Shown here in pieces: positions 826 to 24,360 of a DNA stretch of 64,000 nt. This stretch comes from a virus. Taxonomy: Duplodnaviria > Heunggongvirae > Uroviricota > Caudoviricetes. The position numbers and the translations under genes are program-made. Positions within the stretch are counted from its first letter, which is position 1. Each line of letters begins with the position of its first letter. The notes below the pieces were generated by a model. It did no database searches. It saw nothing but the letters and a program-made list of their open reading frames with translations, and was not told the origin of the DNA. The stretch is taken from the IMG/VR virus record IMGVR_UViG_3300001765_000297; one strand, written 5' to 3'.

Positions 826-870
826 ATTTTGATATTAAATGTAACCTTTATATCTTTGTACCGTTAAAGA
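826..870 (+). promoter_or_regulatory. composite promoter of sigma gene: host-type TTTG(828-831)-N19-TATCTTTG(851-858) overlapping phage-type GTAACC(841-846)..CGTTAAA(862-868)
   Basis: matches Bacteroidetes sigmaA consensus TTTG/TAnnTTTG; overlaps a variant of the phage motif. Confidence 0.5.
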
Positions 871-894
871 GTACATAAACCAAATTTATACATC

Positions 895-1548
895 ATGAAA
901 AAATATAATTTATCTCGAATAATGAAAACTGCATGGCAGATATACAGGGCAGTTGGTATGGACAATATTACATTTGGCGAAGCCTTAAAACAAAGTTGGG
1001 CAAAGTGTAAAGAGTTACCAAGTTTTGAGCAGATATACAAAGATAACTATAAAGCAGTATTAAACTATATTAGGTTCAAATCCTCTAATTTAGGCACAGA
1101 GAATGCAGAAGAATTGTGTAACGACATATTTTTAAGGTTCAAAGACAATATGTATAAATACGATGGCAGAGCCTCTGCAAGGACATTGCTATTCACTTAT
1201 GCTAACAATGGAATTATTGACCATTTCAGAGGGAAAAACGTAGGTAAGACTAGTTGTATGTCTGATTTTGCAGATGATAATGGCAAAGACTTTTTTCAGA
1301 TTGCCGATAGTAATTTTGCCAATGCACTAGTTGAAAATAACGAATTGTCGGAAAAGATTACTAAGAGTTTCAATGTACTGAAACCAAAGTACAAAGAGGT
1401 AGCTAGATTGTTCTTTGTAGAGGAATTGCAGTACACAGAGATTGCAGAAATTCTAGAGATACCTTTGGGAAGTGTTAAGGGTATGATATTCAGAGTTAGA
1501 GAAATGCTACAAGGCGAATTGAAACCAATGTATAATGCAATGTACTAA
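895..1548 (+). CDS. sigma-70 family (ECF-like, regions 2 and 4 only) RNA polymerase sigma factor
   Basis: region 2 (AEELCNDIFLRF...ARTLLFTYANNGIIDHFR) and region 4 HTH (EVARLFFVEELQYTEIAEILEIPLGSVKGMIFRVREML). Confidence 0.8.
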   Translation: MKKYNLSRIMKTAWQIYRAVGMDNITFGEALKQSWAKCKELPSFEQIYKDNYKAVLNYIRFKSSNLGTENAEELCNDIFLRFKDNMYKYDGRASARTLLFTYANNGIIDHFRGKNVGKTSCMSDFADDNGKDFFQIADSNFANALVENNELSEKITKSFNVLKPKYKEVARLFFVEELQYTEIAEILEIPLGSVKGMIFRVREMLQGELKPMYNAMY

Positions 1549-1621
1549 GATACATTGCATAAAACGAAACCCTAATGTACTATTAAGAGTATAAGAGTTA
1601 TAACCACTAAAATATATAAGC

Positions 1622-1750
1622 ATGAAAACATTAACAGTTACTCCGGAAACCTTTGGTACAATGTTACTAAGTATAATTGAGTCAGGTGTTACATTTGAAG
1701 CAATTGAGAAAGACGGTAAAATAATTGTTGAATTTACAGGTGGTTTTTGA
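1622..1750 (+). CDS. small hypothetical protein (42 aa)
   Basis: ORF behind degenerate promoter AAACCC..AGTATAAG (shares CCCTAATGTACTATT with the 3035 promoter). Confidence 0.2.
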   Translation: MKTLTVTPETFGTMLLSIIESGVTFEAIEKDGKIIVEFTGGF

Positions 1751-1776
1751 AACCTTTGTTCAATGTCCACGTATAA
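1748..1776 (+). promoter_or_regulatory. phage promoter TGAAAC-N16-CGTATAA
   Basis: motif instance; identical to B. subtilis sigmaW-type consensus TGAAAC-N16-CGTATA. Confidence 0.55.
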
Positions 1777-1804
1777 GAATTATAAACACTAAAAAACCAT
1801 AATC

Positions 1805-2074
1805 ATGACAACAAAAAACGCAGTTCGCCCATTGTTCACAATTGCAAACGAAATCAGAAAAGATTGGAGAGCCACAGCCAAAGATGGTAAGATTTACTTT
1901 GGTGCTGTTCCTTACCTTGATGCAATGTCAAGCCTTGACAAAATTACTGATGCCTATGGATTAGACTCAGGTAAAATGATTGTAGCATACTTTTTAGGTA
2001 ATGCAAGTCAGTGGAAAGGTGAGAAGGCAAGAGAGATTAAAAAAGAGTTAAATGCTATGTTAAAATCGAAATAG
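1805..2074 (+). CDS. hypothetical early protein
   Basis: ORF downstream of promoter. Confidence 0.5.
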   Translation: MTTKNAVRPLFTIANEIRKDWRATAKDGKIYFGAVPYLDAMSSLDKITDAYGLDSGKMIVAYFLGNASQWKGEKAREIKKELNAMLKSK

Positions 2075-2156
2075 CACAATGTTCATTGTGAGGGGCAAAT
2101 GTCCCTCACATATTTCCAGTAATAACCGGTATTTTAATAATCAAAACTATAAAGCA

Positions 2157-2450
2157 ATGGAATTAAAAATGAAAGTTGTAACGTATAATGAAATTGATTA
2201 CTATGATTTTAACAAATTTGTGCAAAGCATTTATGGTGGTAACTTCGAATTTGTTGCAAACGAAGAAGCTAATAATTACAGTCGATACAAATTCGATGCA
2301 CCTAATGTGCATATGGATTTTGATGGCGAAGAAGAAGCTGCAATAAGGTCGGGCAAATATCCAATGCAATGTACTCATGCATTGTTCAATGTATTGCACA
2401 AAGATGGTCATATTCAAGCCGGAGATTATATTATAAAGGTTTCTTGGTAA
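2157..2450 (+). CDS. hypothetical protein (start trimmed from 2079 to Met after hairpin 2088-2109)
   Basis: ORF; upstream in-frame extension crosses a GTGAGGG/CCCTCAC hairpin. Confidence 0.45.
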   Translation: MELKMKVVTYNEIDYYDFNKFVQSIYGGNFEFVANEEANNYSRYKFDAPNVHMDFDGEEEAAIRSGKYPMQCTHALFNVLHKDGHIQAGDYIIKVSW

Positions 2451-2480
2451 TGTAACCTTTCACTTTGTTTTTACGTATAA
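2451..2480 (+). promoter_or_regulatory. phage promoter TGTAAC(2451-2456)-N17-CGTATAA(2474-2480)
   Basis: motif; followed by conserved leader CATCATAACCAAAACATTCAGAC-ATG. Confidence 0.6.
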
Positions 2481-2504
2481 TCATCATAACCAAAACATTC
2501 AGAC

Positions 2505-2672
2505 ATGGCAACAATAACAACAAAAACGACAATCGAGTTAGACCAAAGAGAAATCACAAATATTTTGGTTTCTCACTTTCAAGATAAGGGTATATTAAAA
2601 GATAATGTTCATACTTCCAATATTCATATTCGTGAAGAGGGTGGACAAATCAAATGTACAATTAAAGAATAA
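2505..2672 (+). CDS. small hypothetical protein (55 aa)
   Basis: ATG at canonical 24-nt distance from -10; not in ORF track (<60 aa). Confidence 0.4.
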   Translation: MATITTKTTIELDQREITNILVSHFQDKGILKDNVHTSNIHIREEGGQIKCTIKE

Positions 2673-2689
2673 TATAAAACCTCTCAGAC

Positions 2690-2965
2690 ATGGACAAATT
2701 AAATTTCACCACAAAACTTTCAGGTTTAACCAAGCCAAGATTTAAACATGATTGTACTGAATGTACATATTTGGGCAGACACAATGGTAAAGACCTTTAT
2801 CATTGTACACAGGTTGGAAATCCTACAATTATAGTAAGGCATTCAAATCATCCCGCAGAATATGTTTCAGGTATGGTATTTGCTCGTAAAGCAGTTGAGG
2901 ATTGTGATTTTAACAATAGCTTTGCTCAGGCATACATGAGAGCCAAAGCATTAAATTTAATATAA
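2690..2965 (+). CDS. hypothetical protein
   Basis: ORF; likely co-transcribed with 2505..2672. Confidence 0.5.
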   Translation: MDKLNFTTKLSGLTKPRFKHDCTECTYLGRHNGKDLYHCTQVGNPTIIVRHSNHPAEYVSGMVFARKAVEDCDFNNSFAQAYMRAKALNLI

Positions 2966-2985
2966 AAATATAATTTTGGTTTATA

Positions 2986-3024
2986 GGGATGTTCCGTTTA
3001 ATCAGAACGGCATCCCTTTTTTTA
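2986..3024 (+). terminator. intrinsic terminator GGGATGTTCCG..CGGCATCCC + T7
   Basis: GC hairpin followed by TTTTTTT. Confidence 0.6.
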
Positions 3025-3034
3025 TTGCCGGAAA

Positions 3035-3064
3035 TGTAACCCTAATGTACTATTGTCCGTATAA
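3035..3064 (+). promoter_or_regulatory. phage promoter TGTAAC-N17-CGTATAA
   Basis: motif + conserved leader. Confidence 0.6.
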
Positions 3065-3087
3065 CCATCATAACCAAAACAAATATT

Positions 3088-3348
3088 ATGGCAACTCAAA
3101 AATCCATCGACAAAAAGTACAACTTCAAGACAGGTTTTAATGTTGGCTATGTAGAACTAGATAACATTATTACGGGCAAAACTCAACCATATTTGAAAGT
3201 AAGTAAACTCAGAGGCACATATCCTAACTATGAAAGAAATTCATTTAAGGGTATTATAATGGATAACTTTAAAACATTCAAGGCAATCAGTATTAATGCC
3301 AAAGGTGAATATGTTTACAAAGAATGTAAGAATCCCTATCAGAAATGA
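3088..3348 (+). CDS. hypothetical protein
   Basis: ORF with promoter/leader. Confidence 0.5.
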   Translation: MATQKSIDKKYNFKTGFNVGYVELDNIITGKTQPYLKVSKLRGTYPNYERNSFKGIIMDNFKTFKAISINAKGEYVYKECKNPYQK

Positions 3349-3375
3349 AACCCTACGGGGTTTCTTTCCGTATAA
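3347..3375 (+). promoter_or_regulatory. terminator hairpin GAAACCC-tacg-GGGTTTC whose 5' arm is the -35 (GAAACC) of promoter ..CGTATAA(3369-3375)
   Basis: hairpin + motif spacing 16. Confidence 0.5.
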
Positions 3376-3399
3376 TCGACATAACCAAAACATAAAGAC

Positions 3400-3828
3400 A
3401 TGAGCAAATTAATTATCGGATTAAAATTTTCACCCGCAACACTTTTATCTGCAACCGCAATTGGTGTTACAAAAGTATTAGTTACTTATGGTGGTGGAAT
3501 GGGTGGTTCACATAAAACTTACTATTGCACAGATTTTCAATTGAAAAAGTCTAATGGAATGTATGTTGCTAAACTCACCAATGGTGAAGTAATTGAAATC
3601 AATCCTCGTTATGTGGTTGAAATCAAAACAAGGACATTAGTTAAGGTCATTACTGATAAGACTGCTCACGCAAATTATCATAACCCTACTGTTAAGACTT
3701 CATTACTTGTTGAGTATATTGAATTGGAACACAATGAAACCTTTGAAGCCACCAATGAAAATCGTAACACTTCAAAATTTGATGACAAACGTATTGTTAT
3801 CAGCTATGAAGAGAACGTGCCAAAATAG
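3400..3828 (+). CDS. hypothetical protein
   Basis: ORF with promoter/leader. Confidence 0.55.
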   Translation: MSKLIIGLKFSPATLLSATAIGVTKVLVTYGGGMGGSHKTYYCTDFQLKKSNGMYVAKLTNGEVIEINPRYVVEIKTRTLVKVITDKTAHANYHNPTVKTSLLVEYIELEHNETFEATNENRNTSKFDDKRIVISYEENVPK

Positions 3829-3927
3829 AAACCTTTTCTGTATTTTCGATATGCCCTTGCGTTGTGATAACGCAGGGGTTTCTTCATTTAAAGCTGCAGC
3901 TTTTTCCAGGATTTCACCGGTGAAAAC

Positions 3928-3955
3928 GTAACTTTTTTCCGGCAATTACGTATAA
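3928..3955 (+). promoter_or_regulatory. phage promoter GTAAC-N16-CGTATAA driving ORF-free transcript
   Basis: motif; no ORF downstream until next promoter at 4060. Confidence 0.5.
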
Positions 3956-3961
3956 GAATTG

Positions 3962-4045
3962 TCAGGGTGAAACTTGGGTGAAGTAATCCAACCCTACCTT
4001 ATGTTCTAATCATAGAATGATTCTAAATACTATATGCAAGTAAAT
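3962..4045 (+). ncRNA. candidate small RNA, family copy 1 (motif GTAATCCAACCCTACC 3983-3998, hairpin TTCTA-atca-TAGAA)
   Basis: promoter-driven, non-coding; shares motif with copies at 9925 and 16976. Confidence 0.3.
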
Positions 4046-4059
4046 ATAATTAATGCAAA

Positions 4060-4089
4060 TGAAACCTTTTTATATCATTCTGCGTATAA
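4060..4089 (+). promoter_or_regulatory. phage promoter TGAAAC-N17-CGTATAA
   Basis: motif. Confidence 0.55.
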
Positions 4090-4105
4090 AAAATAAAAAG
4101 AAATT

Positions 4106-4375
4106 ATGGCTAACTGTGGTTATAGTGCTGATAAAAAATTAATTGCCGATGCAATTAAGTCAGGCAAAACATTAGATATTAAAGAGAAAGATAATAGTAT
4201 AATCATTCTCTTTAAGAATAAAATAAATGCACTTCTTTTGGAGGACACAGTTTCAAATCATGAGTATAATGGTCATAAATATGAGTTTCATTCAGCATGG
4301 AATAAATTATCAAGACTATTAATTAAACTGAATCAGATTAGACAAAAGAATATGTACTACAAATCAATTGAATAA
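4106..4375 (+). CDS. hypothetical protein
   Basis: ORF with promoter. Confidence 0.5.
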   Translation: MANCGYSADKKLIADAIKSGKTLDIKEKDNSIIILFKNKINALLLEDTVSNHEYNGHKYEFHSAWNKLSRLLIKLNQIRQKNMYYKSIE

Positions 4376-4430
4376 ACGTAACCTTTCATAGTCATTTTGC
4401 GTATAATCAGCATAACCAAAACATAAAGAC

Positions 4431-5036
4431 ATGGCACTTATTTTAGTTAGTTGTGAAGAAAGTCAGGCAGTAACAAAAGCATTCAGAGCATTAGGGCATG
4501 AAGCATATTCAAATGACCTTAAACCTTGTAGTGGTGGACATCCTGAATGGCATTTGCAAATGGATTGCTTTGAAGCAATTGCATTAAAGTCTTGGGATTT
4601 ACTTATTGCTTTCCCTACTTGTACTTATCTTACAGTTAGTGCAAACAAATGGTATAAAGACCAACCTAAGAGAAAAAGTGGTGCTTTGGTAGGTGCGGAG
4701 AGAAGACAAGCAAGACTTGACGCAATTGATTTCTTCATGGCATTCGTTAATGCTGATGTACCGAGGATTGCAATTGAAAACCCTATTGGAGTTATGTCGA
4801 CAGTATATCGCAAACCCAATCAGGTTATACAACCTTGGATGTTTGGACATGGCGAAACCAAAGCAACTTGCTTATGGCTTAAGAACTTACCTAACTTGAA
4901 ACCAACAGATGTTGTTGAAGGCAGAGTTGGTGCAATGCATTTACTTCCTAAAACTGACAACAGAGCAGAATTAAGGTCAAAGACTTATCAAGGTGTTGCA
5001 GATGCAATGGCAAAACAATGGTCAGAGTGCTTATAG
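4431..5036 (+). CDS. truncated C5-cytosine-methyltransferase-like protein (motif IV PTC and motif VI ENP present; SAM glycine loop degenerate)
   Basis: LILVSCEESQAVTKAFRALGHEAYSNDLKP aligns to C5-MTase motif I region but lacks FxGxGG; FPTCTYLTVSANK ~ PCQxFSxAGK; IENPIG ~ ENV. Confidence 0.4.
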   Translation: MALILVSCEESQAVTKAFRALGHEAYSNDLKPCSGGHPEWHLQMDCFEAIALKSWDLLIAFPTCTYLTVSANKWYKDQPKRKSGALVGAERRQARLDAIDFFMAFVNADVPRIAIENPIGVMSTVYRKPNQVIQPWMFGHGETKATCLWLKNLPNLKPTDVVEGRVGAMHLLPKTDNRAELRSKTYQGVADAMAKQWSECL

Positions 5037-5100
5037 CACTTTGACTTTTTGTAACAACCGAATGTCCATTTTCGTATAATCATAACCAAAACAAGATAAC

Positions 5101-5469
5101 ATGAAACTCAATAACAAAACAATTCTCGTAGTAAGTGACAATGGTGAAATGGATATTTTCTTACTTGATGGTGGTGTTGCCACTATTCACCACAATGGCG
5201 AGAGATTCTTAACAACTTACATTCAGAATCGTGCAACACCTGACGACCTGAGAAATCCTGATTTTTGGACTTCTGATGTCATGAGTGATAGCAAACAGTA
5301 TATTAAAGACTGGAAACCTACACAGAAGTACATTAGTTCAAAAATGATTTTGGATGCAGCTCGTTGGCTTCTCGCAGGTTTTGGAAATGGTACTATCTTA
5401 TTCCTAAATAATTACAATGAAGTTGCTGACCTCATGGAGGAAGCTGGAATTTGGAATACTGCTGAGTAA
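5101..5469 (+). CDS. hypothetical protein
   Basis: ORF with promoter/leader. Confidence 0.5.
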   Translation: MKLNNKTILVVSDNGEMDIFLLDGGVATIHHNGERFLTTYIQNRATPDDLRNPDFWTSDVMSDSKQYIKDWKPTQKYISSKMILDAARWLLAGFGNGTILFLNNYNEVADLMEEAGIWNTAE

Positions 5470-5524
5470 TGTAACAAATTATTGTCCAATTACGTATAAT
5501 CAATGTACACTAAAACATAAAGAC

Positions 5525-5860
5525 ATGACAAAAAAAGAATGTGCAGAATTAAGCGAAAAGGCAACAGAGATTTCCGAAGGTGTTCAAAGAGCAATCAAAG
5601 AAGTCACCAAGGACAAACCACTAGTATTCTTTGGTGATGAACCTGAACAGGAAGACCTTGATGAAGCACCTTTTGGATACGCAGTTAGCCGACATGGAAA
5701 TTTCCTTGATGGCAATGTACAGAGGGTTTGCGGTGATGATGTCACACTCTTTTTAAGAGGCGATGATTGGGGCGACACAGTTGAACAAAACTTATCTGAC
5801 CTACCTTTCGAGGCACTGATTATGATTCTTGACAAACTTGAAGAAATATTGGAGGACTAA
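5525..5860 (+). CDS. hypothetical acidic protein (start moved to ATG at leader distance from promoter 5471-5499)
   Basis: -10 CGTATAA 5493-5499, 25-nt leader, ATG 5525. Confidence 0.5.
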   Translation: MTKKECAELSEKATEISEGVQRAIKEVTKDKPLVFFGDEPEQEDLDEAPFGYAVSRHGNFLDGNVQRVCGDDVTLFLRGDDWGDTVEQNLSDLPFEALIMILDKLEEILED

Positions 5861-5863
5861 ATT

Positions 5864-6208
5864 ATGGAACTCACATTAGTAAAAACCCGCACATTTAAAC
5901 TTGAACCCTATGGTAAGTTTAGAATTTCAATGGCGAGAAAAGCAAAAGGTTATCTACCAAATATTATTCCTCTACATGAATTGGATATTGACCACGATAC
6001 TTCGATGCCGTTCACAGAGCAACAGGAGAAAGATATTATAAAGTTAATGAAAGCCAATAAAACAGATATTCTAACTGATGGCTCATACTTTGGATTCTAC
6101 ACAAGAGCAGGAGGAGGCGAATTTGCAAGTCTGTGCCATATAAGACACCCAAAGCTAATAAAATATAGGGAAGATGAAAGTTTTAAGGAACTAGTAGACG
6201 GAGAATAA
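5864..6208 (+). CDS. hypothetical protein
   Basis: ORF translationally coupled to upstream gene. Confidence 0.5.
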   Translation: MELTLVKTRTFKLEPYGKFRISMARKAKGYLPNIIPLHELDIDHDTSMPFTEQQEKDIIKLMKANKTDILTDGSYFGFYTRAGGGEFASLCHIRHPKLIKYREDESFKELVDGE

Positions 6209-6260
6209 ACCGGTGAAATCCGGCACAAAAAATTGATTGTCCATGTTTTGGTTATATTAA

Positions 6261-6297
6261 GGGTGTAGTTGTTAACCAGACAACCACCCTTTTTTTA
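6261..6297 (+). terminator. intrinsic terminator GGGTGTAGTTG..CAACCACCC + T7
   Basis: hairpin + T-tract. Confidence 0.6.
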
Positions 6298-6365
6298 TTT
6301 AAGTAAAACGTAACCTTTTAATTGTTAATGTCGTATAACCATCATAACCACTAATAAATAGCACT

Positions 6366-7259
6366 ATGGACACAACAATCAAAAGTACTTACCCAATGGT
6401 AAGTTCACCCGAAGAAGTAAATGATAACGGTAAATTTTCAACACTTAATTTTGGTATGTTTACTACCCTAAAATATAATAGGGGTGAAGACAGTGGAATT
6501 GATAATAACCGTTTATCTAGGTTTAAGAAACTTTGGAATGATAATGAATATTTTAAAGATGATTTACATCTTTATGTTAATAGAGCATTAGAAACTATTG
6601 ACGGTCATCATCATTTACATCTTCATATATTTCTCAAAAGCATTGGTATCGACCTACCAATTAATTTTACAGTATTGACACAGGCAGAATATAATGAAGG
6701 TACATTACTTCAGAAAATTGGTGCGATTGCAAGGCGAAATGCAGTAACTTCAAAATGGGATAGTAAGGCTCATTTCAACGTAGCATTAAAATTACGTTTA
6801 CCTTTGGCAATTGCAATTCAGAATCTTAAAGCAGAGTATATGAGAAAGTATAGTACTGATGGTAGAATGATAACTCCATCACGTATTTTTGCCATTCTTA
6901 CATCGGATAGTAAATGGTTAAATAGTGATTTAGTAACTGTTGAAGATTATGGTAAGGAGGAATTAATACCGGTAATGTCTACCGAAAAATTTAAAAAAGA
7001 GTTTGAATTTGTTTGTAAGGTTATTAACTATCTTACCGAATGGAATTGTGTTTATGAAGAAACTGCAAAAATCACCCAATTTAATATGATACGTGCAACA
7101 ATGCCTATGATTTGGGATAATATGTTAAATATGGATAAATTTCTTGCAGAGATTGAATCAAAAGAATTGAAAGAGAGATTTAAGGGTGTGGCAAATACTG
7201 TCAAGGGTTGTGTAATGTACACTAAAAGATTTCAGAAGAAAATGTTAAACGAATATTAA
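6366..7259 (+). CDS. hypothetical protein (297 aa)
   Basis: ORF with promoter (6311-6345) and leader. Confidence 0.6.
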   Translation: MDTTIKSTYPMVSSPEEVNDNGKFSTLNFGMFTTLKYNRGEDSGIDNNRLSRFKKLWNDNEYFKDDLHLYVNRALETIDGHHHLHLHIFLKSIGIDLPINFTVLTQAEYNEGTLLQKIGAIARRNAVTSKWDSKAHFNVALKLRLPLAIAIQNLKAEYMRKYSTDGRMITPSRIFAILTSDSKWLNSDLVTVEDYGKEELIPVMSTEKFKKEFEFVCKVINYLTEWNCVYEETAKITQFNMIRATMPMIWDNMLNMDKFLAEIESKELKERFKGVANTVKGCVMYTKRFQKKMLNEY

Positions 7260-7272
7260 TAAATATAATAAT

Positions 7273-7313
7273 GGGGTTGCAATTTGTAACCCCATTTATT
7301 TTAACTCGTATAA
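7273..7313 (+). promoter_or_regulatory. terminator GGGGTT..AACCCC with -35 TGTAAC (7285-7290) in the hairpin, -10 CGTATAA 7307-7313
   Basis: hairpin/T-rich + motif. Confidence 0.55.
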
Positions 7314-7318
7314 TATCT

Positions 7319-7777
7319 ATGAATATATTTGAACTACAAACAGAAACCGTACTTAACAACCACGGGAATGTCCAATTAATTTATATTGGTGAAAGTGTTG
7401 TTGCAACCAAAATCTTAAAAGAATCAACAAATAAAAACAAGTTATTTAAAAATGCTTGTTCGCCATATTTAACACCAACTGGAAGACAAAAAAAAACTGA
7501 GTTTGTTTATCATTCACCATCAAATAATATAGATATAAGAATTGAATGTAAGTCTAGAAAAACCCTGGGTTTAATTGGTGAGATAACAGACGAATTAAAT
7601 TTTATTACTAACATACCTGAGAAACAATATTGTTTGGTTTTAAGCGAAATATTACTCAGTAATTATATTTTAGATAGAATAAATACCATTGTAGTAGAAA
7701 AGGAATTGCAAGATAAGATTTGGGTTGGTAGTTTAGAACAGTTTAAAAGTTTCTTAAAGGAACATATTAAATTGTAA
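7319..7777 (+). CDS. hypothetical protein; apparently leaderless (ATG 5 nt after -10)
   Basis: first ATG after promoter; ORF-track start 7271 lies inside terminator. Confidence 0.5.
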   Translation: MNIFELQTETVLNNHGNVQLIYIGESVVATKILKESTNKNKLFKNACSPYLTPTGRQKKTEFVYHSPSNNIDIRIECKSRKTLGLIGEITDELNFITNIPEKQYCLVLSEILLSNYILDRINTIVVEKELQDKIWVGSLEQFKSFLKEHIKL

Positions 7778-7802
7778 CCTTATCAATGTACATAACGTAT
7801 AA
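7773..7802 (+). promoter_or_regulatory. phage promoter TGTAAC-N17-CGTATAA
   Basis: motif. Confidence 0.6.
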
Positions 7803-7807
7803 TACTC

Positions 7808-8002
7808 ATGATACTTTTAACAACCATAACAACTAAGATTCAGAAAGTCATTAAACCCGAAGATGATATAAGGTTTCTTGATGTACGCTACTTGGATAAG
7901 TGGATAAGAAATTATCCACAGTGTTTTCCAAAGTTCGTATTGAATAATGAGCATAAGATATTGTTCAACCCTAATAAACTAAGATATGAATTTCACAAAT
8001 GA
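7808..8002 (+). CDS. hypothetical protein; leaderless-type start
   Basis: ATG 5 nt after -10. Confidence 0.4.
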   Translation: MILLTTITTKIQKVIKPEDDIRFLDVRYLDKWIRNYPQCFPKFVLNNEHKILFNPNKLRYEFHK

Positions 8003-8420
8003 ATTAGATTTTCTTGGCAGCTTTTGGAAAGAAGCACAGAGAATCACAGGTAACATATCAACAGAATTGCCAAAGATTAATCCGAAGGCAAAAATGATTG
8101 GTAAGCACCTTGCAGTTGTTCAATATAAAGACCTTGAAAATTGGAGTGTTGAGGGCTTGTTCGGCAAGTCTGAAAATCTTGATGCACTTGCAAGAAAGAT
8201 TTCATTTATGGTAAATAAAGGTGATGCACAGAATGTCAAACCTCTTATTGAAAGAATATTAACTAAGGGTGTTAAGGCACAAACAAAACCAAAATTAGTA
8301 CGCACTGGCTATACTTGTGATGCAGAATTCTATGGCTTTGGTCATTTCCGTTGGGATTACAAAGCATACATATTAAAGGCAGATGAATTGAAAAGAGTAA
8401 GAGAGTATTTTAATATGTAA
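7986..8420 (+). CDS. hypothetical protein
   Basis: ORF overlapping upstream gene end. Confidence 0.5.
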   Translation: MNFTNELDFLGSFWKEAQRITGNISTELPKINPKAKMIGKHLAVVQYKDLENWSVEGLFGKSENLDALARKISFMVNKGDAQNVKPLIERILTKGVKAQTKPKLVRTGYTCDAEFYGFGHFRWDYKAYILKADELKRVREYFNM

Positions 8421-8469
8421 CATTTCAATGTTGATTTGCGTATAAGCTGCATAACCAATACATAGAGAC

Positions 8470-8814
8470 ATGAGCGAAATTAAATTTGTTAAGTTAACCG
8501 AAGAAGAATTTGAAAGCCGTTTTAATATGGTAATGAATCACTTCTATGCAGACCCTTGTGATTGCCCGTTTGGTGGTGGAATGTTTGAAACCTATGGACA
8601 GGAAGTTGAGTACATCAACAACATCATGAAAGGTACTGATGAAAACCTGAAACGCAGAATTTGGACTATTTTGGATTCCGATGGAGTAATGTGTTTTGTA
8701 AGTGGCTATCACTTTGTAAATCGTTTTGGCTATCTTATTACCGAGGAAGAAGTTGAAGAAGGAACTGAATACACCTTAGAACTCATGGGAACTGAGGATG
8801 AAGAAGAAGAATAA
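8470..8814 (+). CDS. hypothetical protein with acidic C-terminal tail
   Basis: ORF with promoter 8419-8450 and leader. Confidence 0.55.
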   Translation: MSEIKFVKLTEEEFESRFNMVMNHFYADPCDCPFGGGMFETYGQEVEYINNIMKGTDENLKRRIWTILDSDGVMCFVSGYHFVNRFGYLITEEEVEEGTEYTLELMGTEDEEEE

Positions 8815-16470: not shown

Positions 16471-16474
16471 AGTT

Positions 16475-16536: not shown

Positions 16537-16557
16537 TACTAAACAAATTTAAATCTT

Positions 16558-16923
16558 ATGAGAGATAGCTGGTTAACTCCAAATGGAGAAGTAATTGAGG
16601 TTGGAAATTTTCAACACAATAGATATGCACAGAATCTTCTGGAAGAAGAATTGGGGTTTATGGGAATGATGGAATATATGGATAAAGAAAATATATCCTC
16701 TCCTTACGAAGTTCTACATAAACGAGGATGGGTACGTATTAAATATAATACCTCATATTTGCCTAGAATTGAAATACTTGGTGGCTGTATCGATTTAACA
16801 AAACAAGCTAAAAATACGATAGACCCGGCAATGAATGAAAAACAATTGAAGGTAGCTAAAAAGCTATGCGAAGATTGTAATACAGAATTTCATGTAGCTA
16901 TTAATGATAAGCGTTTCTGGTAA
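16558..16923 (+). CDS. hypothetical protein
   Basis: ORF with promoter. Confidence 0.5.
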   Translation: MRDSWLTPNGEVIEVGNFQHNRYAQNLLEEELGFMGMMEYMDKENISSPYEVLHKRGWVRIKYNTSYLPRIEILGGCIDLTKQAKNTIDPAMNEKQLKVAKKLCEDCNTEFHVAINDKRFW

Positions 16924-16939
16924 ATTAAATCAAATTAAT

Positions 16940-16969
16940 TGTAACCCTACCACCGGTAATTCCGTATAA
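16940..16969 (+). promoter_or_regulatory. phage promoter TGTAAC-N17-CGTATAA driving ORF-free transcript
   Basis: motif. Confidence 0.55.
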
Positions 16970-16975
16970 CATACA

Positions 16976-17075
16976 TACGAACCACCTAAACGTAACTGGA
17001 ACTTACCAGAGACCGAGTAGACTCCACCCTACGCAATATTCTGCTTATTCAGAATCTTTCTAAATAGCAATATTT
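16976..17075 (+). ncRNA. candidate small RNA, family copy 3 (hairpin CTGG-aactta-CCAG, motif GAGTAGACTCCACCCTACG 17015-17033, hairpin ATTCTG-cttatt-CAGAAT)
   Basis: promoter-driven, no ORF. Confidence 0.3.
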
Positions 17076-17104
17076 TGTAACCTTGTTTCCCGGAATTCGT
17101 ATCA
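17076..17104 (+). promoter_or_regulatory. phage promoter TGTAAC-N16-CGTATCA (tandem with 17189)
   Basis: motif. Confidence 0.45.
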
Positions 17105-17188
17105 TGGGTAAATTTAACAGGCTCGGTAATACACCTTATTATATATACAACATTCGTTTTTGGCAATTCAAAAATAGTTAAGTATATT

Positions 17189-17217
17189 TGTAACAAACCC
17201 TGAAACATTTCGTATAA
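17189..17217 (+). promoter_or_regulatory. phage promoter TGTAAC-N16-CGTATAA for rIIA
   Basis: motif. Confidence 0.55.
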
Positions 17218-17251
17218 GCATCATAATTTAACCACATAAAAATTCAAGACT

Positions 17252-19543
17252 ATGGAAATCAATTTAAAGAAATTAAGTGACCAAGCAATTGAAGGCACAA
17301 CTGGCTCAAACAAAATGAGACTATCAGAGGACAGCGCATCAATGGTATTCCAGATGTTCACTAAGAGCATTTACAGTAATCCAATTGGTACGGTTGTAAG
17401 AGAAATAACCTCTAACTGCTTTGACAGCCACATTGAGGCAAAGGTGAATTCACCGGTAATAATTCGTAAGAACATCGACAAAGACACTGGAAACCTTTCC
17501 ATTTCATTTATTGACTTTGGTGTCGGTATGTCTCCTGACAGGGTAAACAATATCTATGGCGTTTACTTCGCAAGTACTAAACGAGTAGACAATACTCAAA
17601 TTGGTGGCTTTGGTATTGGCGGCAAAACTCCATTGGCTTATAAAAGGTCAACAGGTCATGGACAAGGCGAATACGATAACAGCTTCAACCTTATTACAAA
17701 CCATGATGGTATGAAATACTTCTACCTGATATATGAAGGTCCTGAAAGTCCTGTTATCTCCCTGTTACATAGTGAACCTACTACTGACCGTAATGGAACA
17801 GAAGTACGCATCCCTGTATTACCAAATGATGTTTCGAAATTCGAGAACGAAATGGTAAGACAATTGTATTACTTCGAGAATGTTATCTTTGATGGCTTCG
17901 ACAAAGAAAGTCTTACCAACAATTACCAAATCATCAGAGCAAAGTCTTTCTTGTTCAGAGGAAACGAGTACAGCAGCTATGCTCACGTATGCTTAGGCAG
18001 GGTTGCATATCCAATTGATTACAGCGTATTGGGATTGTCCAGTGGCGATTACAGCTTCCCTATTGCCCTGCGTTTGGAAATCGGAGACATTAATGTAACT
18101 GCAAACCGTGAAGCACTGGATTACAGCGAGAACACTATCAAAGTACTTAAAAAACAACTCGAAGCTGCTAAGAAAGAGATTACAGAACGTCTTGTAAAAC
18201 AGTACGATAACATTGTTACCTTGGAGGATTACTTTAAGGCTAAGAATAAATTCGGTACACTATTCTTTGAGAATGGCAAGACTATTAACTGCAAAGACAT
18301 CATCAAAATGAAAGATGTTGACTTTTCAAACTTCAAATTCAGTTTCACAAAGATGCCGGATGATGTTCAATTGTTTAACTTCTTCTTCAATGTACGTCTT
18401 GTAGGTAAGAAGTTTGGAAAATACAACCGCAGATATGGTAGTAGTAGTGGACAGTTTAAAGGCGGGTATGATGAATTGCTTGGTGCAAAGAACCTTTACT
18501 TTCACGAAGGATTGTTTGAACGTAAGATTGTAAAACAGGCATGGTTGAAAACCAAACATGAAAGGTATTATGTTATCAGTCGCAAGAATTTACTCGGTAA
18601 TAATGTACAGACTATGGTAGATGTTGCAGAACTGTTCAATGTACACGATACTATTAGTGCCGTAGATGCCAATGGTAATGTACAGCCAACCAAGTATATG
18701 CAGAGTCTTTTAGAAATGCAGGATGAATATTTTGGATTGGTTGAAGATAATTGTATTGACTATAACAGTCTTGAAGTACCTGCTGACTTTATTGAAAGTC
18801 GTAGGGTTGAGAAACTAAGTACTGAAATCCGTAACACTACAATCCCTGCAAAGGTAATGGGTAGCTATCGCACAAGGATTAAACTTGATACAATGTTCAA
18901 ACTCAATATACCTATCTTCTACGGAACAAAGGAAGATGAAGCTAAATTGGAAACCGGATATACTGTTTACCGTATGCTCTTTGGTGATGCTCTAACAGTT
19001 AGAAGCTATGATGAATACCGTCATGAATTCAAATTGAATGATAAGAAAGGTGTGGTATTCATTTTGATTGCACAGAACAACATTAAGTACATGGAGTACT
19101 GCAAGAATGCAAATCATATCAGCACCCTGTATTGGAAGATGTTGCACAGGAAAGCCAAGAAGGTTATGAATTACTATCAGGCACAAAGCCTTGTAACGAA
19201 ATTCAACGAGATAAATTCATTGTACAGGGCATCTGAATTTAAAAACATCTGTCCTACATGGGCAAAGAAAATCCAGACACTCAACATCTTGATGACAGGT
19301 TATGCCAAATCGCCTTTCGAATATAATGGTGGAAGCAATTCAAAATACTATTGTTCATTGTACTTTCCAGTTAATAATGTTGAATTGACAGGTGAACAGC
19401 AAAAAATGAACGTGCTAATTGATGAAGTAAAAGAAATGGAAGTACTGAATGCAGAGGTAATGCAACACATTCAACATCCAAGTTATTTCAGTCTTGCAAA
19501 ACCAAGTTACTGGAACCTGCTTAGAAGCATAATGGTCTACTAA
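17252..19543 (+). CDS. rIIA: rIIA-like protein with N-terminal GHKL (HATPase_c) ATPase domain
   Basis: VVREITSNCFDSH / FIDFGVGMS / GGFGIGGKTP parallel T4 rIIA VVRELITNMIDAH / FGPGMS / GGFGLGSKSP; size 763 aa. Confidence 0.75.
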   Translation: MEINLKKLSDQAIEGTTGSNKMRLSEDSASMVFQMFTKSIYSNPIGTVVREITSNCFDSHIEAKVNSPVIIRKNIDKDTGNLSISFIDFGVGMSPDRVNNIYGVYFASTKRVDNTQIGGFGIGGKTPLAYKRSTGHGQGEYDNSFNLITNHDGMKYFYLIYEGPESPVISLLHSEPTTDRNGTEVRIPVLPNDVSKFENEMVRQLYYFENVIFDGFDKESLTNNYQIIRAKSFLFRGNEYSSYAHVCLGRVAYPIDYSVLGLSSGDYSFPIALRLEIGDINVTANREALDYSENTIKVLKKQLEAAKKEITERLVKQYDNIVTLEDYFKAKNKFGTLFFENGKTINCKDIIKMKDVDFSNFKFSFTKMPDDVQLFNFFFNVRLVGKKFGKYNRRYGSSSGQFKGGYDELLGAKNLYFHEGLFERKIVKQAWLKTKHERYYVISRKNLLGNNVQTMVDVAELFNVHDTISAVDANGNVQPTKYMQSLLEMQDEYFGLVEDNCIDYNSLEVPADFIESRRVEKLSTEIRNTTIPAKVMGSYRTRIKLDTMFKLNIPIFYGTKEDEAKLETGYTVYRMLFGDALTVRSYDEYRHEFKLNDKKGVVFILIAQNNIKYMEYCKNANHISTLYWKMLHRKAKKVMNYYQAQSLVTKFNEINSLYRASEFKNICPTWAKKIQTLNILMTGYAKSPFEYNGGSNSKYYCSLYFPVNNVELTGEQQKMNVLIDEVKEMEVLNAEVMQHIQHPSYFSLAKPSYWNLLRSIMVY

Positions 19544-19554
19544 AACTAATGTAA

Positions 19555-19612
19555 TGCGGGGATTAATTTCCCTGCATTATTTTGTAACATAAACATTAAA
19601 TTATTCGTATCA
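19555..19612 (+). promoter_or_regulatory. terminator TGCGGGGA..TCCCTGCA then promoter TGTAAC(19583-19588)-N17-CGTATCA
   Basis: hairpin + motif. Confidence 0.5.
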
Positions 19613-21937: not shown

Positions 21938-21974
21938 GAATATTAATTCCCGCTAATTTAAATCTATAATATAT

Positions 21975-22292
21975 ATGGAAACCCTTAAAAAGTTATTCAA
22001 AGTACTTGCCTGGTTCATTGTAATCATTTTCTTAATGACGCTAGCATTCAGTAGTGCAGCTTATTTCATGAGTGGCAATGATAAAGAAGTCTTCATCAAT
22101 ATCCTGCAGAGAATACCTGTAGATAGGTTCTGGATATTCCCCCTTGTATTGTTATGCCTTTCTTTATACCTAATAGCATTTGCATTAAAGAAAATGTACG
22201 CTGCGGGTTACGGTGAAGATAAAGTAGTTGACCATAAGAAGGTCGAGGAAATTAAGAAGCTGGTAATGCAGGGATATCTCAATAAAAAATAA
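21975..22292 (+). CDS. membrane protein (2 TM)
   Basis: hydrophobic stretches. Confidence 0.5.
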   Translation: METLKKLFKVLAWFIVIIFLMTLAFSSAAYFMSGNDKEVFINILQRIPVDRFWIFPLVLLCLSLYLIAFALKKMYAAGYGEDKVVDHKKVEEIKKLVMQGYLNKK

Positions 22293-22327
22293 ATTTGGAA
22301 ATCTAAACCAATTATAATACATTTGTT

Positions 22328-22792
22328 ATGATGGAAACTAAATCTAATATTAATTATATCAAAGGAGACGCTACGTCCCCTGTAGGACCTGGTACTAAAA
22401 TCATTGTACATGTTTGCAATAATGTTGGAGCATGGGGTGCAGGTTTTACCGGAGCATTGTCCAAGAAATGGAAAGACCCTGAAGCAGTATACCGTTCTAT
22501 CAATGTACAGGATTTAAAACTAGGAAGTTCCACTCTAGTGGGCGTTGAAGACGACATATGGGTTGCTAACATGATTGGACAGGAAGGAACTATAGGAATG
22601 TCCGAGCGTCCACCAATAAGATATACTGCAGTACGCCAGGCATTACTAAATATTAATACTGTTGCCCATAGAACTAATGCAAGCATTCATATGCCTAGAA
22701 TAGGCTGTGGATTAGCTGGCGGGAAGTGGGAAGAGATTCAAAAAATAATTGAGGACGTAGTGTCCGTGGATGTTTATGTATACGACTTATGA
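22328..22792 (+). CDS. macrodomain (ADP-ribose binding/hydrolase) protein
   Basis: IVHVCNNVGAWGAGFTGAL ~ IVNAANxxLxGGGGVdgAI; IHMPRIGCGLAGG ~ IAFPaIStGiyGyP. Confidence 0.6.
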   Translation: MMETKSNINYIKGDATSPVGPGTKIIVHVCNNVGAWGAGFTGALSKKWKDPEAVYRSINVQDLKLGSSTLVGVEDDIWVANMIGQEGTIGMSERPPIRYTAVRQALLNINTVAHRTNASIHMPRIGCGLAGGKWEEIQKIIEDVVSVDVYVYDL

Positions 22793-23046
22793 GCAGAAAA
22801 ACAATTTACCAAGACTCTAGACTTACCTATGTATCAGGTGTCGACCATATGCTGGGACCATTCATGCAACTCTATGATAAAGACCTAGAAAAAGAAACCA
22901 CAGAAGGTGAAGGTCTGATAATGGATTGGTCATTGCAATGGGGTTATGAAATCAATTTCACCGGTGAATCCTCGGAACTACCACCCGCTAAGATTGCAAG
23001 GAATTACATAAAAGAACATGGTGAAAAAGACATAGATAAGCAATGA
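22789..23046 (+). CDS. hypothetical protein
   Basis: ORF, ATGA overlap both sides. Confidence 0.45.
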   Translation: MSRKTIYQDSRLTYVSGVDHMLGPFMQLYDKDLEKETTEGEGLIMDWSLQWGYEINFTGESSELPPAKIARNYIKEHGEKDIDKQ

Positions 23047-23936
23047 ATGTACTGAGTTTATTTGATGGTATCTCTACCGGAAGACTGGCTTTAGATAAAG
23101 CTGGAATACATGTTGATAATTACTATGCATCGGAAGTCGATAAATATTGTACGGGAGTTTCTAAATATAACTACCCAACCATTGTACAACTTGGTGGCGT
23201 TGAGAATGTCCGAGCAGCTGAACTACCCAAAATAGATTTACTAATAGGTGGAAGTCCCTGCACAGGATTCTCTAGTTCCGGCAAAGGACTTAACTTCAAT
23301 GACCCCCAAAGTAAATTGTTCTTCGAGTTCGTTAGAATATTAAATGAATGCAAACCCACTTATTTTCTTTTCGAGAATGTCCGCATGAAAAAAGAATGGC
23401 AGGACATCATAAGCAGCTACCTCAATGTACAACCTATTGAAATAGATTCTCAACTATTGTCCGCTCAACGCAGAAGACGAATGTACTGGACAAATATAAA
23501 TAATATTGTACAACCTATTGATAAAAATATTACCTTTGGGAATGTACGTGAGCATAATGTCCAGAAACATTATTATACTCCCAAGGCACTGCAGTGGTTT
23601 AGTAAACAACATGTAATCACCGGTAAGCCTTTGAGAATCTGGATAGATAATTTTAAAACTCAGACCATCGAATCAAATATGTATAGAAAATATGGTAGAC
23701 AAAATTTCTTCGGCATTCAAGATACTCAGGGACTTAGATTCGTTACACCCAGAGAATGTGAAAGACTGCAAACCCTGCCGGATGATTATACATTATTTAT
23801 GAATGATGCTAATAAAGAAAATATTAGAATAAGTGATACCCAACGCTATAAAATGATTGGAAACGCCTGGACGCTAGATGTGATAATACATATACTGAAA
23901 CATCTGCCAAGCATAAAAATAATTCAGTGCCCCTAA
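23043..23936 (+). CDS. DNA (cytosine-5)-methyltransferase
   Basis: motifs I LSLFDGISTG, IV GGSPCTGFS, VI FLFENV, VIII QRRRRMYW, X MIGNAWTLDVI. Confidence 0.85.
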   Translation: MNVLSLFDGISTGRLALDKAGIHVDNYYASEVDKYCTGVSKYNYPTIVQLGGVENVRAAELPKIDLLIGGSPCTGFSSSGKGLNFNDPQSKLFFEFVRILNECKPTYFLFENVRMKKEWQDIISSYLNVQPIEIDSQLLSAQRRRRMYWTNINNIVQPIDKNITFGNVREHNVQKHYYTPKALQWFSKQHVITGKPLRIWIDNFKTQTIESNMYRKYGRQNFFGIQDTQGLRFVTPRECERLQTLPDDYTLFMNDANKENIRISDTQRYKMIGNAWTLDVIIHILKHLPSIKIIQCP

Positions 23937-23952
23937 AAACCCTTTAACTACC

Positions 23953-24360
23953 ATGAATGAATTTATTAAAGTTGAGTTTAATCTCCCTGATTATACCGAT
24001 GAACTTAAACGTGCTGAAAATGCAATCGATAACGTTAAATCAGTATATGAAAAATTAGTCAAGCGTAAAAATATAAACGCTGAAGTTCACGAAAAACTCT
24101 ATGAGAGATTAGTTAGAATCCTAGACCTACTAGGAAAAATAAGTACACCTACCTTTGAAATAGAAGACCAATTAGAAGAACTATATTTTAAACATTATTT
24201 CCACCAACCCAACTTAGCTAAACAACTGTGGCTAGAACATTATGAAAGTCTCCACCGTCCCTATAGCCAACTGAAAAATAAATGCTTTCGATTGCTAGAC
24301 CTACTCGATGAAGAATACATAACCATTCATAAAACCTTTCCACCTAACTGGAATTATTAA
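23953..24360 (+). CDS. hypothetical protein
   Basis: ORF, last gene of plus block. Confidence 0.5.
   Translation: MNEFIKVEFNLPDYTDELKRAENAIDNVKSVYEKLVKRKNINAEVHEKLYERLVRILDLLGKISTPTFEIEDQLEELYFKHYFHQPNLAKQLWLEHYESLHRPYSQLKNKCFRLLDLLDEEYITIHKTFPPNWNY

Follow-up and report, generated by a model that had tools for sequence, protein, structure and literature searches.

An extracytoplasmic function-type sigma factor and a dense array of host-type promoters in an uncultured phage of a probable Bacteroidota host

Phage-encoded sigma factors and sigma cascades are already known, and the well-studied phage sigmas act at private promoters in Proteobacteria or Firmicutes systems; those of SPO1 and T4 read a phage-private consensus, and MotA/AsiA remodels the host sigma70 rather than replacing it. 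Jumbo phages also encode sigma factors (PMC7824862). Here we describe a sigma factor gene (895..1548, + strand) and a dense array of the bipartite motif TGTAAC-N16/17-CGTATAA in a 64,000-nucleotide stretch of DNA from a virus of the class Caudoviricetes (IMG/VR record IMGVR_UViG_3300001765_000297), referred to throughout as the window. The gene product is of the extracytoplasmic function (ECF) type, and the motif has the form of an ECF promoter mapped in Flavobacterium psychrophilum. In the literature searched, nothing relevant was found on a part for phage-encoded ECF sigmas in controlling early genes or taking over the host, and nothing on sigma factors or promoters of Flavobacterium phages.

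The F. psychrophilum promoter belongs to the mapped transcription start site THC0290_T_0013, which is listed under class SM6/SigECF with a Band 7 family protein as the downstream gene (PMC9723704 Table S2). Its sequence from -50 to +10 is given there as aattaaactacaactttGTAACtttcgatacaaaCTAGCGTATAACCAATAtaacaaacta (PMC9723704 Table S2); this reads ttGTAAC-N16-CGTATAA-CCAAT-A(+1), with the start at the sixth nucleotide past CGTATAA and a 5' untranslated region of 23 nt (PMC9723704). The same Table S2 marks this Band-7 promoter as active in all listed conditions. The SM6 regulon includes an ECF sigma/anti-sigma pair and type IX secretion system (T9SS) genes, and TAnnTTTG is described as the Bacteroidota sigmaA -7 box, located at -12 to -5 (PMC9723704). 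A T-tract adjoining the -35 element is a known ECF promoter element and broadens recognition among ECF sigmas (PMC5758882).

The sigma factor and the promoter array

The open reading frame (ORF) at the left end of the window is a genuine ECF-type sigma gene:

895..1548 (+): phage ECF-type sigma factor, 217 aa (Pfam, NCBIfam, PHROG 1740, AF2/Foldseek)

The first-pass annotation had read this ORF as ECF-like, with sigma regions 2 and 4 only, and Pfam, TIGR02937 and the modelled fold all agree. Pfam Sigma70_r2 (PF04542) scores 29.6 bits against a cutoff of 24 and Sigma70_r4_2 (PF08281) 36.1 bits against 25.7, while the same scan gave no match to region 3 or region 1.1; the NCBIfam sigma70-ECF model TIGR02937 scores 76.6 bits (cutoff 42.9), its match beginning at residue 44. 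An AlphaFold (AF2) model built with 21 clade members (mean pLDDT 80) comprises an N-terminal two-helix extension (residues 6-39), a three-helix sigma2 domain (44-114), a disordered linker (115-139) and a four-helix sigma4 domain (140-216). The top 25 or more Foldseek matches of this model in the PDB are all ECF sigmas, and the modelled sigma4 superposes on the complex of E. coli sigmaE region 4 with -35 DNA (2H27) with a root-mean-square deviation of 1.1 Å over 64 residues. The nearest PDB sequence is B. subtilis SigW (5WUQ, E=1e-12); the SigW equivalog models are not passed (70.6 vs 209 and 58.1 vs 243 bits; NF007223 / TIGR02948).

A profile built from the first homologues sets the phage sigmas apart from cellular proteins, with clade members scoring at least 141 bits and the nearest cellular ECFs at most 94. 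Exhaustive profile searching returned about 347 sigma cluster representatives at 50% identity (E<=1e-30). The clade has two forms, a long one with the N-terminal extension and a short one without it, and contains no cultured members. Its DNA-reading regions in sigma2 and sigma4 are well conserved, and the region 4.2 helix-turn-helix IAEILEIPLGSVKG is nearly invariant. The N-terminal two-helix hairpin (MKxAWxI...LKQSWxxxK; residues 1-45, window 895-1030) is conserved in the long form and is not covered by the ECF profile. A co-transcribed anti-sigma factor is typical of ECF sigmas, though not universal; the ORFs neighbouring the phage sigma gene show no anti-sigma domain.

The motif is genuine and has the behaviour of a promoter. 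The window contains 32 exact matches to TGTAAC-N{16,17}-CGTATAA, against 0 in 100 dinucleotide-preserving shuffles, and 56 matches if up to two mismatches are allowed. A position weight matrix (PWM) trained on sites with at most one mismatch, and applied at a threshold of 19.1 bits (the maximum over 30 Markov-1 simulated windows was 18.1), accepts 46 sites. The + strand carries 34 of them, all within 1748..19612, and the - strand the other 12, within 25338..57827; every one is oriented with the local gene direction. A 17-nt spacer separates the two boxes in 33 sites and a 16-nt spacer in 13. These counts uphold the first-pass description of the array: at least ~30 plus-strand copies had been estimated by eye; the 11 copies named as having a 17-nt spacer are all present, those at 4060 (TGAAAC) and 19583 (CGTATCA) being one-mismatch variants; the copy at 1748, TGAAAC-N16-CGTATAA, is an exact SigW-type match; and the copies do face gene or ORF-free transcript starts, lying upstream of ORF starts or, in 5 of the 46 cases, before ORF-free stretches. 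The accepted ECF-type promoters are as follows.

1748..1776 (+): TGAAAC-N16-CGTATAA, upstream of conserved 89-aa gene, PWM 30.8
2451..2480 (+): N17 promoter, PWM 41.8
3035..3064 (+): N17 promoter, PWM 35.5
3346..3375 (+): N17 promoter (TGAAAC), nested hairpin, PWM 34.6
3927..3955 (+): N16 promoter (CGTAAC), predicted to drive ORF-free conserved transcript 3956-4060, PWM 24.9
4060..4089 (+): N17 promoter (TGAAAC), PWM 28.2
4377..4406 (+): N17 promoter (CGTAAC), PWM 39.5
5050..5079 (+): N17 promoter, abuts upstream terminator, PWM 28.8
5470..5499 (+): N17 promoter, PWM 30.0
6309..6338 (+): N17 promoter (CGTAAC), PWM 35.2
7285..7313 (+): N16 promoter, -35 in hairpin, in-frame ATG 7319 at predicted +1, PWM 24.5
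7773..7802 (+): N17 promoter, gene 7808..8002 leaderless and starting at predicted +1, PWM 30.0
8416..8445 (+): N17 promoter, PWM 37.6
8845..8874 (+): N17 promoter, -35 in terminator hairpin loop, PWM 34.3
9147..9176 (+): N17 promoter (CGTAAC), nested hairpin, PWM 40.0
9460..9489 (+): N17 promoter, nested hairpin, duplicate of 8845 copy, PWM 35.0
9889..9918 (+): N17 promoter, predicted to drive ORF-free transcript 9919-10005, PWM 29.5
10009..10037 (+): N16 promoter, leaderless gene 10043..10183, PWM 33.3
10383..10412 (+): N17 promoter (CGTAAC), upstream of GP88-family gene, PWM 36.2
11276..11305 (+): N17 promoter, nested hairpin, PWM 33.7
11538..11567 (+): N17 promoter, PWM 41.7
12138..12167 (+): N17 promoter, nested hairpin, PWM 24.7
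12376..12405 (+): N17 promoter (CGTAAC), PWM 27.9
12843..12872 (+): N17 promoter, PWM 30.6
13617..13646 (+): N17 promoter, nested hairpin, PWM 32.9
13958..13987 (+): N17 promoter, -10 CGTACAA, PWM 34.5
14296..14324 (+): N16 promoter, PWM 36.4
14653..14682 (+): N17 promoter (CGTAAC / CATATAA), PWM 26.7
15929..15958 (+): N17 promoter, predicted to drive ~550-nt ORF-poor transcript, PWM 36.6
16507..16536 (+): N17 promoter, directly after strong terminator, PWM 30.3
16940..16969 (+): N17 promoter, predicted to drive ORF-free transcript 16970-17072, PWM 32.0
17076..17104 (+): N16 promoter, -10 CGTATCA, then ORF-free stretch, PWM 23.7
17189..17217 (+): N16 promoter, upstream of rIIA-like gene 17252..19543 (PHROG 612), PWM 32.5
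19583..19612 (+): N17 promoter, -10 CGTATCA, upstream of rIIB-like gene, last copy of the + arm, PWM 25.3
25338..25366 (-): N16 promoter, PWM 35.8
29207..29236 (-): N17 promoter, PWM 34.6
31741..31770 (-): N17 promoter, upstream of GmrSD_N-domain gene, PWM 29.2
35163..35191 (-): N16 promoter, PWM 38.3
39247..39276 (-): N17 promoter, PWM 28.7
40169..40198 (-): N17 promoter, -10 CGTATAT, weakest accepted, PWM 19.3
45701..45730 (-): N17 promoter, RNA ligase ATG 45693 at 7 nt past heptamer, near-leaderless, PWM 23.2
48381..48409 (-): N16 promoter, PWM 34.5
52268..52296 (-): N16 promoter, PWM 31.0
53093..53121 (-): N16 promoter, leaderless gene 52752..53087, PWM 33.4
56808..56837 (-): N17 promoter, PWM 30.7
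57799..57827 (-): N16 promoter, leaderless gene 57403..57792, PWM 21.4

Three variant promoters fall outside this set.

1565..1594 (+): CGAAAC-N17-AGTATAA, upstream of 42-aa ORF 1622..1750 (sequence read; relaxed regex match)
492..521 (-): CGAAAC-N17-AGTTAAA with CATAAACCAAAAC leader, upstream of ORF 53..466 (-) (sequence read)
2..31 (-): CGTAAC-N17-AGTATAA, facing out of the window towards a 182-aa gene in L001, the 9 kb to its left

The accepted sites give the extended consensus ttTGTAAC(c/a)TTT...T-rich-CGTATAA, with the AAC in the -35 and the CGT in the -10 that belong to ECF promoter architecture. After the heptamer most copies show CATAACCAA(A/T)AC at a distance of 4-5 nt, and the ATG usually lies 21-28 nt past it. 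At six promoters (7285, 7773, 10009, 45730, 53121 and 57827) an ATG follows after only 5-7 nt, and at five of the six this ATG is the one used by independent JGI or ENA gene calls; at 7285 the JGI call begins instead at the upstream in-frame ATG 7271. The gene starts concerned are 7808, 10043, 45693 (-), 53087 (-) and 57792 (-), one of them that of the RNA ligase. These short distances place the predicted +1 at the sixth or seventh nucleotide past the heptamer and suggest that several mRNAs (five or six) are leaderless. Leaderless mRNAs make up only ~5.5% in F. psychrophilum.

Terminator-like hairpins followed by a T-run are nested in or abut 15 of the 46 promoters, compared with 3% of control positions, and in 8 of the 15 the -35 hexamer lies inside the hairpin; the other 31 promoters are without one. 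Such fusions occur at 7285, 8845, 9147, 9460, 11276, 12138, 13617, 14296 and elsewhere, with the -35 in the hairpin loop or stem and the terminator T-run serving also as the T-rich spacer before the -10, so that each such gene forms a compact terminator-promoter cassette. The promoters at 8845-8874 and 9460-9489, with their hairpins, are identical across at least 30 nt, which points to recent duplication of the cassette. On the left arm the promoters head most genes as single-gene cassettes; on the right arm they head longer operons, which on the - strand run without internal promoters. Motif copies on the + arm stop at 19612, and L001 has one good copy. A search for a second recurrent (late) promoter motif, in the promoter-free gaps of the window and in positions 1-9000 of L001, regions that hold no structural genes, gave none.

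Occurrence in related phages and in the host group

The sigma gene and the motif co-occur in at least 13 diverged contigs. All contigs reached through sigma homologues (34-47% identity; L007, L009, L010, L014, L015, L016 and L077) carry the motif, three of them being parts of IMG/VR contigs 168, 299 and 363 kb long. The sigma gene heads the array in almost all, and the motif precedes nearly every gene downstream; the exception is L007, where array and sigma gene are divergent, on opposite strands. Where the block upstream of sigma is visible (L001, L014, L015, L016, L077), the motif is missing from it. Fragments found by DNA pattern alone (L050, L034, L031, L037, L057, L036) in turn contain a phage-type sigma. 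Both boxes are almost invariant over 15 contigs, with either N16 or N17 preferred per lineage and the -10 shifted to CGTATTA in L016. In small numbers, five of seven phages whose sigma has the N-terminal extension prefer N17, and five of six without it prefer N16.

The same promoter is present in bacteria. A composite pattern that includes the start context, TGTAAC-N16/17-CGTATAA-N3-5-ATAACC, was scanned over one genome per species and returned 39 loci, ~25 of them in Bacteroidota. About 17 Bacteroidota chromosomes or metagenome-assembled genomes, mostly Flavobacterium and including isolates of F. chuncheonense, F. ponti and F. gelidilacus, have a single composite match 15-19 nt upstream of a gene for an SPFH/Band-7 (HflK-like) protein of ~320 aa. 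In three Chitinophagaceae-type genomes (L068, L061, L048) the composite stands ahead of an ECF sigma gene; the sigma of L068 has NF058625 as its top match (108.8 bits) and is followed by a 349-aa gene, a layout that corresponds to the classical autoregulated sigma/anti-sigma arrangement, with the anti-sigma putative and assigned by position only. The SM6 features (a GTAAC -35, a 16-17 nt spacer and a CGTATAA-like -10) are found at 46 phage sites, and the start offset deduced from the phage copies agrees with the offset mapped in F. psychrophilum. The phage's own Band-7 gene (33719..34279) was considered as a captured member of the host regulon and has no meaningful similarity to the host protein.

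The source is an uncultured lytic phage with no close deposited relative by megablast and tblastn against the deposited phage set. Megablast found one 40-bp stretch 95% identical to Flavobacterium phages, and tblastn with the sigma protein gave only weak matches, to uncultured gut phages, which over most of the query did not exceed 32% identity. Metagenomic assemblies from several JGI, ENA and Logan samples contain an identical sigma protein, on contigs of up to ~91.9 kb; the relatives, too, come from metagenomes, as contigs spanning 24-363 kb. Among the products encoded in the window are rIIA- and rIIB-like proteins, a Dda-like helicase, an RNA ligase, DHFR, NUDIX and methyltransferases, and many small ORFs have no assigned function; structural genes are absent. 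No MotA, AsiA or gp55 homologue was found among the ORFs scanned. The earlier description of the phage as T4-like is not established, the rIIA/rIIB proteins, Dda-like helicase and RNA ligase being all that points that way. Shine-Dalgarno (SD)-like motifs precede only 3 of 138 genes, and Bacteroidota are known to lack SD sequences (PMC6847099; PMC9723704). Because of this scarcity, the ~25 of 39 composite loci in Bacteroidota and the 40-bp match to Flavobacterium phages, the host is most likely a member of Bacteroidota, Flavobacterium-like.

Expression of the sigma gene and competing readings

Two overlapping elements lie ahead of the sigma gene.

851..858 (+): putative sigmaA -7 box TATCTTTG (TAnnTTTG), 44 nt upstream of sigma ATG, with TTTG 19 nt further upstream
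840..868 (+): off-consensus ECF-type promoter TGTAAC-N16-CGTTAAA, overlapping the sigmaA box

TAnnTTTG occurs at -38 to -48 from the sigma ATG in seven of eight phages, with a chance expectation of ~1-2% per locus, and the box at 851-858 is probably a host-dependent promoter of the sigma gene. An ECF-type promoter, usually off-consensus, precedes the gene in five of the eight: TG(T/A)AAC-N16-CGTTAAA is shared by the window, L015 and L009, and the variant in L007 has CGTATTA. The copy at 840..868 could possibly serve autoregulation or priming. As a general phage promoter TAnnTTTG was rejected, since it occurs at background frequency upstream of genes overall; the only sites that stand out are the sigma-linked copy and two good TTTG-N18/19-TAnnTTTG sites. 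These are TTTG-N18-TACATTTG at 49752-49781 (-), upstream of ORF 48767..49702, and TTTG-N19-TATATTTG at 52713-52743 (-), upstream of ORF 52491..52694, and the two ORFs are candidate host-dependent immediate-early genes. Between the sigma gene and the divergent gene 53..466 (-) lies a GC-richer non-coding stretch of 300 bp (540-840); within it, ~70 bp match the sigma-adjacent region of L037 at 79% identity, and Rfam gave no match.

These elements are consistent with a three-step scheme. On entry, host sigmaA holoenzyme would transcribe the phage sigma gene from the box at 851-858. The 217-aa sigma, with no adjacent anti-sigma, would then bind host core RNA polymerase (RNAP), as homology and co-occurrence suggest, and the resulting holoenzyme would initiate at ~46 promoters of the form TGTAAC-(c/a)TTT-N-T-rich-CGTATAA, starting at the sixth or seventh nucleotide past the heptamer, usually the A of CATAACC. 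As the sequence shows, these promoters stand ahead of most left-arm genes as single-gene cassettes and at the head of longer operons on the right arm. Host ECF holoenzyme may also fire the phage promoters, having basal activity on the Band-7 promoter, and may prime the sigma gene through the weak ECF-type promoter at 840-868. We put the probability that the phage sigma is a reader of the ~46 ECF-type promoters at about 0.65.

Several observations weigh against this reading. The phage motif is genuinely the ECF promoter of the host group and is not phage-specific; where the first-pass annotation had proposed a promoter of the phage's own, it coincides with a mapped host-group ECF promoter, down to the start context and leader of the host Band-7 and ECF-operon promoters. 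Phage-specificity is thereby gone, yet reading of the motif by the phage sigma is not disproved. Identity between the phage sigma and the host ECF sigma found behind an identical motif is only 23%, and the phage protein does not reach the cutoff of the GFO_1088/PG0214 ECF family NF058625 (44.9 vs 130 bits). The motif stays invariant while the phage sigmas diverge to 34% identity, a pattern also expected if a conserved host sigma were the reader, and spacer preference does not cleanly track the neighbour-joining tree of the sigmas. The sigma gene of L077 lacks an exact sigmaA box, and the good ECF-type CGAAAC-N17-CGTATAA ahead of it is its sole recognisable promoter. Homology and the co-occurrence of sigma and motif speak only indirectly for the phage protein, and not its host counterpart, as the probable reader. 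Were the host sigma the only reader, the 46 promoters would be immediate-early, the phage sigma gene would be one target among them, as the ECF-type promoter on that gene in five of eight phages would allow, and its product would read other, middle or late promoters. Such a route could start from basal host ECF activity, in keeping with the SM6 Band-7 promoter being marked active in all conditions listed in its source table, or from release of the host sigma by envelope stress at infection, and would resemble the SPO1 and phiEco32 cascades; the phiEco32 sigma indeed reads a consensus unlike the one that transcribes its own gene (PMC12276001). However, neither the promoter-free gaps of the window nor the adjoining 9 kb of L001 yielded a second recurrent motif for the phage sigma to read, the nearest characterised relative, SigW, itself reads TGAAAC/CGTA, the sigmaA box on seven of eight sigma genes would be superfluous if host ECF sufficed, and every contig examined shows tight linkage of sigma and motif. 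We regard a host-only route as unlikely; it stays viable because of the identity and invariance of the motif, the 23% sigma identity and the fact that the regions searched for another motif contain no late genes.

The phage protein might alternatively be a decoy that binds the host anti-sigma and frees the host ECF sigma to transcribe the phage promoters, which would suit a host-type promoter, the conserved extra N-terminal helical hairpin and the distant relation to the host sigma. Conservation of the DNA-reading regions of sigma2 and sigma4, with IAEILEIPLGSVKG nearly invariant, and the 1.1 Å superposition of the modelled sigma4 on sigmaE region 4/-35 DNA argue otherwise, and anti-sigma binding usually requires a closely matched cognate sigma, where identity here is 23%; a decoy role is improbable. 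It is harder still to credit that the repeat is not a promoter at all (a site for a DNA-binding protein, a recombination or packaging signal, or part of a terminator): overlap of 15 of the 46 copies with terminator-like hairpins would fit, but 31 copies have no hairpin, the bipartite geometry is that of ECF promoters, the copies are strictly co-oriented with genes at a fixed distance from start codons, with ATGs exactly at the predicted +1, and the identical sequence is a mapped start in F. psychrophilum.

Returning to the phage sigma as a reader, its need to be made first and the sigmaA box on its gene make the ECF promoters second-tier unless host ECF holoenzyme fires them. The earlier proposal that the ECF sigma runs the early programme is thus retained in part: the promoters are dense before genes, and the sigma itself would come first, from the sigmaA box. 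Likewise, sigma and motif do travel together, as a cognate pair would, and the claim that the motif is genome-wide has to be withdrawn, given one copy in L001 and none on the + arm past 19612. A more elaborate version, which we offer tentatively and consider rather doubtful, is that host ECF sigma, through envelope stress or basal activity, fires the phage promoters, including the weak one on the sigma gene, immediately on DNA entry. The anti-sigma-free, hairpin-bearing phage sigma would then keep the circuit on through positive feedback and activate the host Band-7 (possibly T9SS) regulon as well. If this were so, a large clade of uncultured Bacteroidota phages, jumbo-sized contigs included, would owe its early programme to promoters that imitate a host ECF regulon, and not to sigmaA promoters or a phage RNAP.

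Neighbouring features and comparison with known systems

A second conserved gene accompanies the sigma gene.

1805..2074 (+): conserved 89-aa protein, sigma-linked (PHROG 13953, function not assigned)

In 9 of 13 related phages it immediately follows sigma; there it is 44-76% identical and more conserved than sigma itself, and its family has more than 800 clusters. The protein is modelled as a four-helix bundle (pLDDT 90). It was considered as an AsiA- or gp79-like factor and found no significant PDB match, the best being PedB (TM 0.62, E=2); it could be a sigma or RNAP cofactor.

Three paralogous ORF-free stretches of ~90-100 nt follow promoters on the + strand (3956-4040, 9919-10005 and 16970-17072), with homologues in L010, L014, L015, L017, L026, L029, L056 and L072. 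They share the core AGTA(A/G)(T/A)C(T)CCA(A/C)CCTACCTTATA..TCT.A..TTTAGAATnATTCTAAAT, have no Rfam match, and show weak covariation support for structure. A palindrome of the type TTTAGAAT-n-ATTCTAAA lies within the ORF-free transcripts (4012-4026); TTTAGAAT-type palindromes are also found upstream of sigma in L009, L014, L015 and L077 and downstream of it in L007. Judged from sequence, the family may be a small RNA, or its palindrome may be a protein-binding site, possibly an operator. A longer ORF-poor unit of ~550 nt (15959-16506, +) extends from the promoter at 15929 to a very strong terminator at 16475-16500 (an 11-bp GC-rich stem, then T7). Over the whole window Rfam gave nothing at gathering threshold, and only sub-threshold, terminator-driven matches at 15.9-17.3 kb.

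The two transcription arms meet in a 367-bp convergence zone (24361-24727) with G-rich repeats (GGTGGGGATAAATGGGACATCGTGGGGGAAAATGGGGGAAA). An 831-aa ORF at 41074-43569 (-) matches the ART-PolyVal (ADP-ribosyltransferase) domain weakly and may be a host- or RNAP-modifying enzyme; L077 has a short ART-PolyVal ORF (4080-4598) near its sigma gene. Three contigs from different samples stop within ~30 bp of window position 63.8 kb (around 63830), which suggests a genome terminus or repeat boundary. The 91.8-kb IMG/VR contig L024, considered as an extension of the genome, is a different phage.

What is new here is the ECF class of the sigma in a large clade of uncultured Bacteroidota phages, the density of single-gene promoter/terminator cassettes and the identity of the promoter with that of a host ECF regulon. 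The locus is a concrete case in which the copying or hijacking of a host stress regulon by a phage can be tested, in a phylum with unusual and little-studied transcription signals, with ~46 start sites predicted to the nucleotide. The compact, apparently strong promoter/terminator cassette and the anti-sigma-free sigma are candidate genetic tools for Flavobacteria/Bacteroidota, and the combination of no SD, a TAnnTTTG box and an SM6-type promoter could act as a host-phylum signature for metagenomic phage contigs.

SPO1 gp28/gp33-34, T4 gp55 and T4 MotA/AsiA likewise achieve temporal control by replacing or reprogramming the sigma subunit of RNAP. Similar in outline is coliphage phiEco32, whose gp36, a distant sigma homologue, is a phage sigma made from a host-sigma promoter that redirects host core RNAP to many phage promoters, and whose cofactor gp79 may have a parallel in the 89-aa gene beside sigma. 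At the middle and late genes that gp36 serves, the promoter is one AATGTA element with its centre at -11.5 (PMC12276001), whereas those described here are of a clearly different type, bipartite ECF promoters common to the host, and serve accessory, early-type and nucleotide-metabolism genes. By sequence the closest characterised sigma is B. subtilis sigmaW, the NCBIfam SigW models being among the top matches, and sigmaW promoters, tGAAACnTTTt-N-CGTA with a T-tract next to the -35 (PMC5758882), are matched exactly by the copy at 1748. The phage differs in host phylum, in its mostly TGTAAC -35, in having no RsiW-like anti-sigma and in sigma scores far below the SigW equivalog cutoffs.

The Bacteroidota SM6 class (THC0290_0009 Band-7; autoregulated operon THC0290_1774/1773; PMC9723704) shares with the phage the GTAAC -35, the 16-nt spacer, the CGTATAA -10, a start at the sixth nucleotide past the heptamer (predicted in the phage) and a short A-rich leader without SD that begins (C)ATAACC. 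It differs in that the composite with leader, a pattern narrower than the whole promoter class, matches once per host chromosome fragment as against 46 phage copies in 64 kb, and in spacing, most phage copies being N17 and not N16; the phage also brings its own sigma, 23% identical to the host's. As promoter, start context and leader are the same as in the host ECF class, the phage sigma is best seen as an unregulated functional copy of the host stress sigma, and the phage seems either to copy a host regulon or to connect itself to it.

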